A DNA stretch of 10,383 nt from a virus. Its lineage: Duplodnaviria > Heunggongvirae > Uroviricota > Caudoviricetes. A program made the position numbers. The stretch spans positions 1 through 10,383 of the IMG/VR virus record IMGVR_UViG_2698536484_000002; one strand, 5' to 3'. This document shows positions 1-6,000 of this stretch, piece after piece. Numbering within the stretch: the first letter of the stretch is position 1; each line of letters begins with the position of its first letter.

Positions 1-3000
1 GCCAGCGTTGCGAGTGCTGTACTCATCCGTTTTATACCTCTGAATCAATATCAACCTGATGGTGAGCAATGGTTTCAACCATGTACCGGATGTGTTCTGC
101 CATGCGTTCCTGAAACTCAACATCGTCATCAAACGCACGGGTAATGGCTTTTTTGCTGGCCCCGTGGCGTTGCAAATGATCGATGCATAGCGATTCAAAC
201 AGGTGCTGGGGCAGGCCTTTTTCCATATCGTCTGCCAGTTCTGCCTCTTTCTCTTCACGGGCGATCTGCTGGTAGTGACGCGCCCAGCTCTGAGCCTCAA
301 GACGATCCTGAATGTAATAAGCGTTCATGGCTGAACTCCTGAAATAGCTGTGAAAATATCGCCCGCGAAATGCCGGGCTGATTAGGAAAACAGGAAAGGG
401 GGTTAGTGAATGCTTTTGCTTGATCTCAGTTTCAGCATTAATATCCATTTTTTATAAGCGTCGACGGCTTCACGAAACATCTTTTCATCGCCAATAAAAG
501 TGGCGATAGTGAATTTAGTCTGGATAGCCATAAGTGTTTGATCCATTTTTTGGGACTCCTGGCTGATTAAGTATGTCGATAAGGCGTTTCCATCCGTCAC
601 GTAATTTACGGGTGATTCGTTCAAGTAAAGATTCGGAAGGGCAGCCAGCAACAGGCCACCCTGCAATGGCATATTGCATGGTGTGCTCCTTATTTATACA
701 TAACGAAAAACGCCTCGAGTGAAGCGTTATTGGTATGCGGTAAAGCCGCGCTTAGGCGGCTGATGTTTCTTCTTTCAGGCTTTCGAGATATTTACGTGGG
801 TCGTCGTAACATTGGCATTCGCTGTACCAATCCACCCAGCGATCAGTAAGCCCCATCTCTGATAAATCTTCATCGGTAAGGCTCTCATCCCACATCTCAA
901 GGCCGTTAGCATTGCAGTAATCAGGCTTGATGTTGTTGTCATACTGAAAGGCGTCATAATCAGCCAGTGCGTCCATCAGACGAACACCCTCTTCAACACT
1001 TGCCACTTCTACAATGAACGGCTTCATAGGTACTTGCGGGATATGCCAGACACGTAATTTCATATATCCTCCGTCAAAAAAATTGCCCTCACACTGGAGG
1101 GCAAAGAAGATTTCCAATAATCAGAACAAGTCGGCTCCTGTTTAGTTACGAGCGACATTGCTCCGTGTATTCACTCGTTGGAATGAATACACAGTGCTTA
1201 TTCGTACTAATAAAATACCCAATTTTCTGTTTCTTGGTTGTGTCCAAAGTTATATTCAATATCTGGTGTTGATGTATCAATATTCTTCATACCATCAACA
1301 AGAGTTGATACAACAGCCAAATCTTGTTTGATTCTCATTAAATGGTATTTCTTCCGGCGCAATAAACTTTCAATGGCAAGTTTCTTCGTTGGGAATGCAA
1401 AAGATCTTTCTGCATTTTTTGCTACTTTCTTAATTGCATATCTATTTCTCCTTTGTTTCCATTCCTGTAACCACTGATTTGGTGCTGGTTTAAAATTAAC
1501 AATCCAATGCGCAGGAACCAACCATGCATAATGCTCTGTCTGATGAAAAGCTATATATTGAAGTGCGAATATTTTTATCCCATCTTCTTCAACTGTCGCC
1601 TGGAATCTCCAGAAAACAGGCATTCCATCATGTTCAGTTTCTGATTCAGGAAAAGGTACGCTCCATGATTTTGTCATATCTCACCTCAAATAAGTGGTTT
1701 GCTGCCTAATTTCATTTTCTGGCGACCAACACAAGTCACCTCGCCGTCAGTTGTTTTGATTTCCGGTAGCCTGCCGCGTAAATGGCTACGTTTGGAAGAC
1801 ATACACCAGTTTCTGGTTGCTTATGTCCAAACTCATTCGCGTACACAATGGCCGCTCGCTCCAGATTGCGTCTGTATTCTTTCTGTTGCCAGATCACGTC
1901 CTGTGCCATGAACTTAATTGGCTTAGCGTCTTCTATGCGCTCAGGCGTTTCGTGAGTACCTTTAGCCTGAATCTGCGCTCTGCTTAGAGTAGGGCGGTGT
2001 AATACTTCTGAACTTATTGCTTCTTCGCGGGCCAGTACGCCGTTAGCTAATGCCTTTGCCTTTAAACGCTCACGACGACGAGAACGTGAATTGCCTTTGA
2101 ACTGAGTTCTGCGTGTCATATAGACCTCCTGATGAACTTTGGTGGTGTGGTAGGTGGGAGACCCATTTCGACCTGTTTCGGCCTACTTCAATTCGGCAAT
2201 AGTCCCGCAGGCCTCGCCGCTTTACGTGCGACATATGCCCGTCCATGAACCCTTCACCACACCCCAAAGTTCACTTTGGTTATTGCGCTTTGTCAGCGCC
2301 GTAGATTCATATTCGAATCGTTGTATATTCACCGCCCTGGTGAGTAATGCGTCCTGCTGACGACGATAATAATGAACCAATAGTTCGGCATTATCAAGAA
2401 CTATTGGTACGAATTTTGGTGATTTATTAACTCTACGAAGTATGATTCTGATATATAAGGAAATTTATTTTTGAAAATGTGGCTGATGAAGGTTATGCGG
2501 CAGGGATCATAACTGCATGGTTTAGCGAGTTACATCAATAAATACAATTGGTTATGTTTTTTAGGTGGGCGAACGTGAGGCAAAGAAAACCCGGCGCTGA
2601 GGCCGGGCTAGATTTTAAAGTATTTATCTTTTAGAGATGTAGATGTAAAACTTTTCGCCTTTGAAAATTTTTTGTCATCAGAAGGGCTTATGAACTCATC
2701 TTTTTTGTAGGGAACCGCTAATGCTGCATCACGTCTGCGAGGCAGCTTGCTTACTTCCTCGCGCTTTTTCATGATCAGTTATCCTTTAATAACCTATACA
2801 GTTTTGTAGGGGTACATCCTGAGGATATTGTTAAGTTCGTAGCACGCCTTTTCCGCCCATCATCGTATAAACGAAAACCAGTAGTAGACGAATTTTCTGC
2901 GTCAAAAACTATAGACAGTATAGCGTCCCCAGACTTTTTTTGCCATTCGCATGTGCCGTTAGTTGGTTTCGTCATCTGTAGACGCCAGTCAAGAACGCCA

Positions 3001-6000
3001 TCACTTATAGCTGAGAGATCGTTTAGTACATCTAGTACGGATTGATATCTTTCATTTGGATCTACATGAATGCATTTGTTCACTATTGTTATTAATTTTT
3101 TATGTATATGGGGAGGATACTCTTTTAATGGATAGCAGCCATTAATTATCGACTCTCTGAGTTGTTCAATCGTGCTAAATGCAGATCTTTCTCTTTCAAA
3201 ATTATCATGTCCAACACACATTCTATATATGGTTAATCCTGCCTGATATATGTCATATGTGAAATTATAATCATTTGTTGATAAAGAAAAATATTCCGGT
3301 AGCACATGAAAATGATATCCAAACTCAGGCGCAGCTCTCGATTCCTCATTGACTAACTGAGATAATCCAAAGTCAGATAGCATGGCCTCATTTCTGTTTG
3401 ATATCATAATGTTATTAGGTTTTATATCAAAATGCATAAGACCTTTTGAGTGTATATGATAAAGTCCACTTAAAAATTGAATGGAATACCGTATTATCTC
3501 CCTGCTTGTAAGATTATTTTTTTTCATTAATTGGTTTAGCGAACCATTATGATAAAATGGCATGGCTATATAGATATTGCTCTCACATTGAGCAGCATAC
3601 TGAACTTGCACAATATTTGGATGTGCATGTTTATAGAGAAGCCTTGCTTCATTAAAGTAGTCGTCGTGGTTAGTGTTTTCTTTTTTTTCTATTTCTTTAA
3701 TCACCAAGTCATGAGCTAGGTGTCTGTCATGAGCCAGATATACTTTTGAAAAACAACCCTGTTCTTCTAGATCACTAATCCATTCGAATTCTACATCAGC
3801 TCTTTTGTATGGAGTTAGCATCCCCTTACCTCCGCAGATAGTGCAGCCAAAACAGCTTCATTTGTTTCAGTTGTAAAACCAGAATTATCGATTCCATTTA
3901 TATTGCGGTGTGACTTCAATATTTCTTTATACTCGATCTCTGTTAGGTTCAATGATGATTTCATGCCAGATTTTCTAATAGTGTAATATTTTCTTACATC
4001 ACTGCTTGAAAATGCTTCTTGAATAACAGCTTCTATATAAAGGCGGTCAATGCTAAGATTATCAGAGTTTGATTCAGTAACGCGTATGGCAGCTAATTCA
4101 ACATTATATAAATTAAGAATGTCGAGGATGTTATTTCTCACATACTTTAATTTTTCTGGTGTGTCTAAGGTCGAAGGTATTTTAATAACATCAACACATT
4201 TGAGTGCAGACTCATTAGTGCAATATACAACAAAAGATGTAACTTTGGGCGCCGCTCTAACACCTAGTATTCTCATTTTTTATATCCTATTTTAGAATCA
4301 GGCCGCATCTCTGCGACCATCCATCATCCAAACGTCTCTTCACTCATCCGAAGAAGCAGCAATCCGGGTCAGCACGCACAAGCTCAAGCGCATCAGTCAG
4401 CGAAAGTTCAGTACTGTACTGATGCCATTTCATATCCTTCCGCATCCAATAGATTTTCCATCTATCCAGAGAACGTATGTACTTGATTCTTGCTGATGGC
4501 AGGATGTTTGTTTCACCTGGATTGCCCTGCCACACGGGGCGCTGTTCGCCGATATCTATCGTTTGGTCATTGATGCTATAAACAATATCCAGTTCATTGC
4601 GGATATGTTCAGGCGGCCTTATGCTTTCAATGAATTGGTGAACTTCTTTTTTTACTGCTTGATATTCAAGGTCATTGAACGCCATCTATCCTCCTTACCC
4701 AAACGTCTCTTCAGGCCACTGGTTACCAGCTATGTGACGATGAAGTCACGAACTTTTCAGCCACTCCCTTGCCTCGATGTCATCCAGATGGCGAGATTGC
4801 TTCAGAATACCAGCTACATACTCCACCTTTGCTACTTGATGATAAGGCAACGTTATAGGCCTGTGATCCTGGTTAATGCTTGTAAATTGGTATTCTCCAT
4901 CTCTGTCATAGCCAAGAACCTTAATCATGTTGTGTCCTTCAACGGTTCTGACAAACACCTCATCACCCGGGAATACTTTGGTGTTAGGCTCAATGAGTAC
5001 ATATTCTCCTGATTTTATTCTGGGCCACATGCTGTCTCCTTTCACACGAAGACCAAAGGCATCTGGATCATCGCTATAAATTTTGAGCCACCCATCGCGC
5101 TCTTCGGTCATCTCGATGGCACCATCAACACCAAGAATTGCCTCACCAACCACGCGCACTAACCCTTTTTTTAATTTGCCAACAAATGAAAGAGTATCTT
5201 CATCATTCGCTCCATTTAACGAAGTGCCGTGCTGAAGCCAAACAACATCAACGTTTAGAAATTTCGCAAGCGCATTCATTTTTTCCTGACGCGGTAAAGA
5301 CTCAGCATTAAACCATTTGCTAACGCCTTTGGACGAAAGAGAAAGGGCACGGGCTATAGCCATTCCCCTACCATGTTCATCAAGACCAGCTTCTTTACAG
5401 GCTTGCGCTAGCCGCTGGGCGAATTCTTTGCGCACTTTTTCATTCTGAACCATGAGTACGATACTAAAGCACTTGCAAAAACTTTCAGTTCAACCATAAT
5501 GCGTACTGAAAGTACGAAAAAGGATATTCCTATGCAAAATCTTGATGAGCCGATTAAAGGTGTCGGCATCCCTGAAGTTGCGAAGGCTTGTGGAGTTAGC
5601 GAAAGGGCTGTCTATAAGTGGCTCAAAAACGGCTTCCTCCCTAAGACTGAGTTTTTTGGGAAAACTAAATACGCATCAAAAATCGAAGAGATTTCTGGTG
5701 GCAAATATCAAGCAAGCGAAATGCTTGAAATAAGCAAAAAGAACCTTCTGGCTGCATAAGTAACACCGCTATTTTCACAATGGACATTCGTCCTACGTCG
5801 CTGACAAAGCGAGTCCCAATATATCTGACCAACTAAGGCCATATGCGTTTCCACGCATACCTTTCAACTAGCTATTCACTATTGGAAATCTTAAGAAATG
5901 GAACAAACAAGTTACAGCAAACTATCACAGCGAGAAATTGATCGCGCTGAAACTGATTTACTCATCAACCTGTCAACGCTTACCCAGCGCGGTCTGGCAA

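Follow-up and report, generated by a model that had tools for sequence, protein, structure and literature searches.

The abortive-infection kinases PD-T4-6 and Stk2 have been described as single-gene systems. Stk, the Hanks-type kinase of the Shiga-toxin phage 933W, reportedly described by Friedman et al. (2011, Mol Microbiol 82:567) and by Tyler et al. (2004), is a textbook case of prophage-encoded abortive infection. According to the literature, this kinase shares a transcript with the repressor gene cI and aborts infection by HK97 (PMC3564112), becomes activated when HK97 infects but has little activity in cells that are not infected (PMC3681748), and mediates abortive infection in lysogeny (PMC8008677). 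Here, we describe the locus of this kinase in a viral DNA sequence of 10,383 nucleotides (nt), IMG/VR record IMGVR_UViG_2698536484_000002, positions 1 to 10,383, hereafter called the window. An earlier reading made from the sequence alone had singled the locus out as a three-gene operon consisting of two small unassigned proteins and a kinase. The picture we favor, with a probability of about 0.6, is instead one of two cassettes: a DUF3024 gene, L0084, and a kinase cassette in which Stk is the effector, the RuvC-fold protein L0083 would be its regulatory or sensor subunit, and L0081 is a third gene. While the locus and the function of the kinase were already known, a phylum-spanning three-gene cassette whose first gene encodes a RuvC fold without the canonical active site is undescribed in the literature found, and no earlier description was found of the DUF3024 gene as a separable cassette.

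Layout and expression of the locus

By megablast, positions 2400-5500 of the window are 100% identical to phage JLK-2012 and 99.9% identical to 933W, phi24B, Stx2 phage I, Min27 and many other Shiga-toxin (Stx) phages, and by tblastn the kinase is 99.7% identical to the annotated 933W Stk. The window is the immunity region of the 933W-group Shiga-toxin phages, and its kinase is the published 933W Stk itself. The sequence-only reading had cited the 933W kinase as an analogy, but the window is the 933W-type region itself. The accompanying proposal of kinase-based abortive infection agrees with what is published on Stk (PMC3564112, PMC3681748, PMC8008677). In the annotation of 933W, the genes run in the order cI, L0084, L0083, stk, L0081, terminator tM, nutL and N. 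As had been proposed, the locus occupies the slot equivalent to that of rexAB. Its features, with lengths in amino acids (aa) and base pairs (bp), are as follows.

5461..5488, minus strand: region of the maintenance promoter pRM (pM), from the 933W annotation (AF125520, HM208303), coordinates transferred with an offset of -101
4746..5453, minus strand: cI repressor, 235 aa, with helix-turn-helix (HTH) and S24 peptidase domains, opening the transcription unit (Pfam Peptidase_S24 4e-16, HTH_3 1e-5; cI in the 933W annotation)
4699..4712, minus strand: upstream copy of the 14-nt boundary repeat GAAGAGACGTTTGG, just 5' of the DUF3024 ribosome-binding site
4344..4685, minus strand: L0084, DUF3024 protein, 113 aa, PADLOC candidate PDC-S43
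4328..4341, minus strand: downstream copy of the 14-nt boundary repeat, directly 3' of the DUF3024 stop codon
4301..4318, minus strand: RNA hairpin GGUCGCA-GAGA-UGCGGCC upstream of L0083, without a U tract, from folding
3815..4276, minus strand: L0083, RuvC-fold protein, 153 aa, first gene of the kinase cassette
2775..3821, minus strand: stk, Hanks-type kinase, 348 aa, with its domain at ∼1-275 and a C-terminal extension at 279-348
2608..2772, minus strand: L0081, 54 aa, isoelectric point 10, trailing open reading frame (ORF), phrog_4063
2588..2609, minus strand: intrinsic terminator tM (tRM), an 8-bp stem with 6 GC pairs followed by UUUUCUUUG, from the terminator scan and annotated in 933W and phi24B

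A six-frame ORF listing reproduced the exact coordinates of the three minus-strand ORFs (113, 153 and 348 aa) that had been placed directly downstream of cI. The 153-aa gene is translationally coupled to the kinase gene, as had been seen, with a 7-nt overlap (ATGCTAA) and GGAGG upstream, and the start codon of L0081 lies 2 nt past the stk stop (TGAtcATG). The end of the unit had to be revised. It had been drawn as three genes spanning 2775-4685 and closing in a terminator, but tM, the sole terminator-like site on the minus strand between cI and N, lies outside that interval, with its stem starting at the L0081 stop codon. Because the terminator is placed after L0081, the unit ends ∼190 nt beyond 2775 and holds four accessory genes rather than three; the gene that had been passed over, L0081, is the one that actually stands third in the kinase cassette. 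The reported AT-richness applies to L0083, stk and L0081 (guanine-cytosine (GC) content 0.348, 0.353 and 0.376, respectively) but not to the 113-aa gene, which at 0.447 is near cI (0.452). Nor are the two small proteins unassignable, as had been thought: the 113-aa product is a DUF3024 protein (PF11225, E = 2e-31) and the 153-aa product has a RuvC fold. Two accessory cassettes very probably follow cI in one terminator-free stretch, DUF3024 alone and then L0083-stk-L0081.

Expression of these genes with cI, which had also been anticipated, is supported by published data (PMC3342100, PMC10789677 and PMC3564112), and the terminator scan found no terminator-like site between cI and tM. The oR operators (∼5446-5516) overlap the annotated pRM region, and promoter-like sites within the unit numbered 10 against 9.9 expected from shuffles. 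In phi24B lysogens, two spots on two-dimensional gels, P2 (17,096 Da) and P3 (13,472 Da), were ascribed to genes downstream of cI with lysogen-restricted transcription, with MASCOT scores that were not significant (PMC3342100). The masses calculated for L0083 (17,096) and L0084 (13,473) identify P2 as L0083 and P3 as L0084. During phi24B infection, p22 (stk), p23 (RuvC-like), p24 (DUF3024) and p25 (cI) shifted together in the transcriptome, with log2 fold changes of -1.19 to -1.43 (PMC10789677). By quantitative reverse-transcription PCR in phi24B, the L0083 transcript stood at ∼10 times and the DUF3024 transcript at ∼1e5 times the level of cI (PMC3342100), a spread observed despite one apparent common promoter. 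The hairpin at 4301-4318 has a 7-bp stem and a GAGA loop; the segment 4277-4346 folds with z = -2.25, a modest signal, and 6 of 200 shuffles fold as well. Its stem is kept with two compensatory changes in a DUF3024-less relative (L125), and Proteus loci carry a different hairpin in the same place. This hairpin, or RNA processing, might be involved in the difference in transcript levels within the operon. AP004402 marks a 'putative maintenance promoter' and three sites called 'putative operators' inside L0083 (∼3950-4030); these were considered and rejected, the operators being unlike oR1-3 and promoter-like sites being at chance level.

Association of L0083 with the kinase

A scan of bacterial genomes that started from L0083 and used one genome per species yielded 80 loci, spanning alpha-, beta- and gamma-Proteobacteria, Bacteroidota, one cyanobacterium and one myxobacterium. 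In 78 of these, a full-length Stk homolog lies directly after L0083; the remaining two are a truncated contig of 1.1 kb and a locus where only a decayed fragment of the kinase is left. When the scan was reversed and started from the kinase, an L0083-family gene was found directly upstream in 77 of 80 viral loci, and since the other three are cut by contig ends, this amounts to 77 of 77 informative loci. The junction between the two genes is an 8-nt overlap in 51 bacterial loci and a 4-nt overlap in 4, and Bacillus phage SPbetaL7 has adjacent distant homologs of both, with 167 aa for the L0083 counterpart and 350 aa for the kinase; these genes share 4 nt, and an ORF of 60 aa comes next. Diverged L0083 homologs in Klebsiella, Proteus, Terasakiella and a metagenome contig also have a kinase gene directly after them, without DUF3024, in settings that include positions after unrelated repressors, after an integrase and beside Wadjet JetC/JetD genes. 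The flanks of the cassette are heterogeneous throughout (repressors, restriction-modification, SAVED, AbiJ, HipA, SieB, Tn7-like TniQ/TnsD, integrases and housekeeping genes), and no fourth conserved partner was found in them.

The distance matrices of the cassette proteins are correlated (L0083 against kinase, r = 0.87; small ORF against kinase, r = 0.75; Mantel 0/999 each), and the members of the cassette have therefore been inherited together without partner swapping. Mean pairwise identity is 52% for both L0083 and the kinase domain, 27% for the C-terminal extension of the kinase and 23% for the small protein. Across phyla, genome comparison thus shows L0083 to act as a genetic partner that is obligate for the kinase. 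Among complete E. coli genomes, 225 of 5,426 (∼4%) carry the cassette, and these are mostly Shiga-toxin-producing strains. A locus in a Sphingomonas metagenome-assembled genome (L096) was considered as a cassette without a kinase and set aside, as a kinase remnant is present: at 4001-4686, an intact L0083 homolog is followed by a 72-aa fragment that keeps the '...YFKxxPPEA' region of the kinase. That cassette is decaying through kinase loss. In the metagenome contig (L016, 1-6297), the RuvC-like/kinase pair stands directly downstream of the Wadjet-type JetC/JetD genes, a defense-island context.

L0083 has an RNase H-like RuvC fold and is only 13-17% identical to RuvC proteins. Against Pfam RuvC (PF02075) it scores 14.2 bits, below the cut-off of 22.2 and over its N-terminal half only; against NCBIfam RuvC it scores 12.5 with a cut-off of 163, the hhalign probability is 1.2%, and a PDB sequence search found no solved relative. 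At 50% identity, the family falls into 453 representative clusters, and almost every one is a stand-alone protein of ∼150-165 aa. In 121 representatives, which are just 24-41% identical to L0083, the conserved set consists of G5, R7 (99%), R47, R/K65, E68, R78, E82, E87 and E140, of which E68 and E140 are 97-98% conserved and E82 and E87 invariant. Mapped onto RuvC by sequence alignment rather than by superposed coordinates, position 7 corresponds to the first catalytic Asp and is Arg in 120 of the 121 and Asp in none, R/K65 aligns with the catalytic Glu66, and the third acidic position (D138) is variable. From the RuvC tetrad of D7, E66, D138 and D141, only E140 (∼D141) and the nearby E68 are kept. 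Judged by this conservation, the site is under strong constraint yet is not a DEDD/DEHD tetrad, and L0083 is probably misnamed by the label 'RuvC-like Holliday junction resolvase'.

Stk matches Pfam Pkinase (PF00069) over residues 21-260 with 155.4 bits (cut-off 31.7, E = 2.4e-45). Its core motifs are intact, as the sequence-only reading had it, with K42, E58, H130-F-D132-I-K134-P-N-N137, D150-F-G and P175-E176 (within PPE) invariant in 13 diverse homologs. Beyond the domain lies a conserved extension of ∼70 residues (279-348) with an invariant Trp279, for which no sequence relative was found in the PDB. The catalytic loop, HFDIKPNN, bears the Ser/Thr-type signature (Lys at HxD+2) and not the tyrosine-kinase forms HRDLAARN or HRDLRAAN, whereas the literature describes Stk as a tyrosine kinase and reports Tyr phosphorylation (PMC3564112, PMC3681748). 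Given this loop and the reported Tyr activity, Stk may have dual specificity. HK97 gp41 is reportedly the trigger of Stk. In the HK97 record, the gene that by its place in the gene order would be gene 41 encodes an ERF-family single-strand-annealing recombinase (2176-2781, minus strand, E = 2e-44); by its annotation, 933W encodes Bet, in contrast to the ERF-family recombinase of HK97.

In nearly all loci, the kinase stop codon is adjoined by an ORF of 50-65 aa, whose start falls within -4 to +30 nt of it. These trailing ORFs form a coherent family, with 58 of 65 outscoring all 200 shuffles in a leave-one-out test that used only members less than 40% identical. The enterobacterial trailing ORFs, including 933W L0081, have no detectable relation to this main family: L0081 scored 1.5 bits against a hidden Markov model (HMM) of the 65 trailing ORFs, and 1248 of 2000 shuffles scored as high. 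A motif likeness of L0081 to other trailing ORFs and to the Bacillus phage ORF had been noticed by eye and was discarded, the HMM signal not rising above shuffles. Only a Proteus relative resembles L0081 (38% identity). Because HMM homology to the trailing-ORF family is lacking, L0081 is a positional analog only.

The DUF3024 gene and other features of the window

L0084 matches PF11225 over residues 4-113 with 108.9 bits (cut-off 24.9) and the PADLOC profile PDC-S43 over residues 1-113 (5e-42). The predicted DUF3024 fold is a small alpha+beta sandwich, as in protein-binding inhibitors, chaperones and immunity proteins. An AvrPto-like role as a kinase inhibitor was entertained and dropped: the sequence match has E = 0.07, and AvrPto is absent among the structural neighbors of a confident model.

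Searches of a phage collection found DUF3024 in 144 records, L0083 in 41 and Stk (at least 99% identity) in 39, and the 39 Stk-bearing records are the same as those with L0083. About 100 phage records contain DUF3024 without the kinase, as do other prophages and islands. Different cI alleles precede it in Salmonella SE1, where a ParA-like gene comes next, and in SH2026Stx1, where a 177-aa hypothetical protein does; in VT2-Sakai it is a frameshifted remnant. A Rouxiella badensis prophage (L098) has a tandem DUF3024 pair after an S24-type cI and before a DUF333 gene (3352-4342). In Rahnella (L099), a lone DUF3024 gene at a prophage end has two DinI genes and a type I-F CRISPR-Cas locus as neighbors; DUF3024 also stands alone in a Yersinia ruckeri island. 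Near the kinase cassette, it was found in 1 of the 80 bacterial and 33 of the 80 viral loci; the viral loci that lack it include some with a kinase 96-97% and an L0083 99% identical to those of 933W.

The gene is bracketed by the exact 14-nt direct repeat GAAGAGACGTTTGG, present in 2 copies in the window against 0.01 expected. The DUF3024-less relative mentioned above has a single related copy of the boundary sequence between cI and L0083, and boundary-like sequences after cI occur in SH2026Stx1 and SE1 as well as in the DUF3024-less relative. This arrangement suggests that the repeat serves as a recombination 'linker' for cassette exchange. Judged from these distributions, DUF3024 is an independent, separately mobile cassette outside the kinase module. 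Both small proteins had been cast as partners of the kinase; this fits the 153-aa L0083, in view of its linkage across phyla, but not the 113-aa DUF3024 protein, given the ∼100 phage records without a kinase and its absence from relatives with 96-99% identical kinase and L0083.

It is possible, though we would not bet on it, that DUF3024 is a stand-alone anti-phage gene (PDC-S43) or a modulator of the repressor/RecA switch, like 434 Hex or plasmid PsiB. In favor are the full-length PDC-S43 match, although PDC-S43 is a computational candidate only, the position of the gene directly after S24-type cI genes of at least four alleles, the adjoining DinI genes in Rahnella, and lysogen-restricted and very high expression (PMC3342100). 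There is also an earlier example, the Hex protein of phage 434, which is encoded from pRM and modulates RecA-mediated cleavage (PMC3564112). On the other side, there are DUF3024 copies that do not adjoin a repressor, and DUF3024 goes unmentioned in the literature searched. Of the two, the RecA-switch role would be more speculative than single-gene defense.

Two features elsewhere in the window can be recorded. The only Rfam match found in the window is the cIII thermoregulator Lambda_thermo at 634-692 on the minus strand (88.5 bits), upstream of or overlapping cIII/kil. At 1207-1677 on the minus strand lies L0079 (156 aa, phrog_1636), which is similar to HK97 Gp45 and has no Pfam match; it is AT-rich (GC 0.357; GC at third codon positions (GC3) 0.268), has N on one side and the ea10/ssb gene on the other, and may itself be an additional accessory cassette.

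Roles of the cassette proteins and comparison with known systems

Stk, as described in the literature, is quiescent in the lysogen and is switched on by HK97 infection, which it aborts. In the mechanism that we favor, L0083 would be indispensable to the kinase as a regulatory or sensor subunit and would not be a Holliday junction nuclease; it would be made in fixed proportion to Stk via translational coupling, and would either keep Stk inactive or couple it to a signal of infection, which might be a DNA structure or a recombination protein of a phage. Two fast-evolving parts, the C-terminal extension of the kinase and the small basic trailing protein, would be the likeliest elements for specificity or contact with the trigger, and DUF3024 would have a role separate from the kinase cassette. 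Physical interaction of L0083 and L0081 with Stk, and the roles assigned to these two proteins, are our inference. A more specific and rather unlikely version holds that L0083, without nuclease chemistry, still recognizes branched DNA or recombination proteins and acts as the infection sensor of a widespread and hitherto undescribed three-component immune system made up of a pseudo-resolvase, a Hanks kinase and a small basic protein, so that detection of recombination intermediates or of a foreign single-strand-annealing recombinase would release or activate the kinase and lead to cell death. Were this true, it would explain HK97 sensing by the 933W Stk and would represent a new sensor class in kinase-based immunity.

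Several points weigh against a regulatory L0083 within a three-gene cassette. Simple co-mobility would equally yield the observed linkage and co-inheritance, and L0083-kinase fusions were absent among the top 150 of the 453 family representatives. The four conserved Glu residues (E68, E82, E87 and E140) would be compatible with a non-canonical nuclease activity. L0081 belongs to the cassette by position only, and DUF3024 accompanies the cassette in two lineages that have diverged, one 933W-like and one Proteus-like, which may point to a loose functional link. Finally, if stk alone were to reproduce exclusion, L0083 would be dispensable for killing.

That last possibility is the core of one alternative, in which Stk acts alone, like PD-T4-6 and staphylococcal Stk2, with L0083 and L0081 as neighbors of unrelated function, for example as a prophage recombination accessory. 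The literature frames exclusion in terms of Stk only (PMC3564112, PMC3681748, PMC8008677), and PADLOC calls the kinase a single-gene PD-T4-6, which along with the missing fusions would suit a kinase working by itself. We nevertheless regard it as distinctly improbable, because unrelated neighbors would be shuffled apart, as DUF3024 is, whereas L0083 and the kinase are adjacent almost without fail in both scan directions, across phyla and in very different flanks, overlap at start and stop in most loci, co-evolve, and keep their arrangement in a Gram-positive phage. A second alternative reverses the roles and makes L0083 an active non-canonical RuvC-type nuclease and the killing effector, which Stk, as sensor or switch, would turn on by phosphorylating it. 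Many abortive-infection systems use a nuclease as effector, and E68 and E140 fall roughly at two of the four catalytic positions, with E82 and E87 invariant besides. This reading is unlikely: no residue of RNase H-like nucleases is more conserved than the first catalytic Asp, and Arg replaces it in all but one of the 121 representatives, R/K65 stands opposite the catalytic Glu, the third acidic position is not conserved, the Pfam RuvC score stays below threshold, and the literature credits exclusion to kinase activity (PMC3564112, PMC3681748).

We hold it to be very unlikely that DUF3024, L0083 and Stk make up one three-component system with both small proteins as partners, be it as sensor, substrate or antitoxin. 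It is true that all of the genes are co-transcribed and co-regulated with cI (PMC10789677, PMC3342100), that DUF3024 lies upstream of L0083-stk both in the 933W-like lineage and in a diverged Proteus-like one, the latter with ∼56% kinase identity, and that its fold is one seen in protein-binding inhibitors, chaperones and immunity proteins. Yet DUF3024 is found in 144 phage records as opposed to ∼39-41 for L0083 and stk; it accompanies other cI alleles, occurs in tandem in Rouxiella and alone in Rahnella and Yersinia islands; it is near only 1 of 80 bacterial cassette loci and is missing from near-identical viral loci; and it is enclosed by a direct repeat and differs in GC content by ∼10 points. 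Returning to the two-cassette picture with a regulatory L0083, if Stk does belong to a conserved three-gene cassette, its silencing and its sensing of HK97 become directly testable. The presence of the cassette in E. coli, mostly in Shiga-toxin producers, makes it relevant to phage-based control of O157:H7. Two automated annotations are corrected as well, namely the resolvase label of L0083 and the name 'PD-T4-6', which masks a multi-gene system, and the rexAB slot of lambdoid phages gains a clear case in which two accessory cassettes are stacked and move independently.

The closest described system is 933W Stk, which is the same gene in the same place after cI and before the same terminator, with 99.9% DNA identity over 3.1 kb and the same gene order. 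In the citing literature it figures as a lone kinase, and its RuvC-like partner and trailing ORF are not discussed in the papers found. No paper was found that joins the terms 'RuvC-like', 'protein kinase' and 'anti-phage' or that ties the RuvC-like gene functionally to Stk. With lambda RexA/RexB, the locus shares the slot between cI and the leftward terminator and, according to the literature, cotranscription from pRM in the lysogen and the logic of abortive infection (PMC3564112), but there is no relation in sequence or fold, and the effector is a kinase here and an ion channel in RexAB; no Rex family was among the Pfam, PHROG, NCBIfam and PADLOC matches of the four proteins. The RuvC resolvase has RuvAB and recombination genes as genomic partners, whereas that of L0083 is a kinase, and in place of the catalytic Asp7 L0083 has an invariant Arg, with the Glu66 register on R/K65. 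L0084 matches both DUF3024 and PDC-S43 over its full length, and the status of PDC-S43 as a single-gene candidate fits the independence of DUF3024 from the kinase.

Hanks kinases are also found within multi-protein anti-phage systems, as in the Stk cassette, namely Mad6 in MADS, PglW in BREX and MkoA in Mokosh. Mad6 is the best PADLOC match of Stk (1e-47), but Stk falls well below the NCBIfam equivalog cut-offs for Mad6 (120 against 460 bits) and PglW (44 against 990 bits); these kinases are much larger than Stk, and the other components of their systems are absent here. PD-T4-6, from the E. coli pangenome, and staphylococcal Stk2 share with Stk the use of a Hanks-type kinase as the abortive-infection effector. 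The PADLOC PD-T4-6 profiles cover Stk residues of about 20-276 (best E = 5.2e-37, residues 20-273), a likeness confined to the generic kinase domain, with the extension 279-348 outside the match. They pick out housekeeping PASTA kinases of S. thermophilus as well (PMC11514479), so the label is not specific. While PD-T4-6 is a stand-alone gene, the Stk family has an L0083-family gene upstream in every one of its 77 informative loci.

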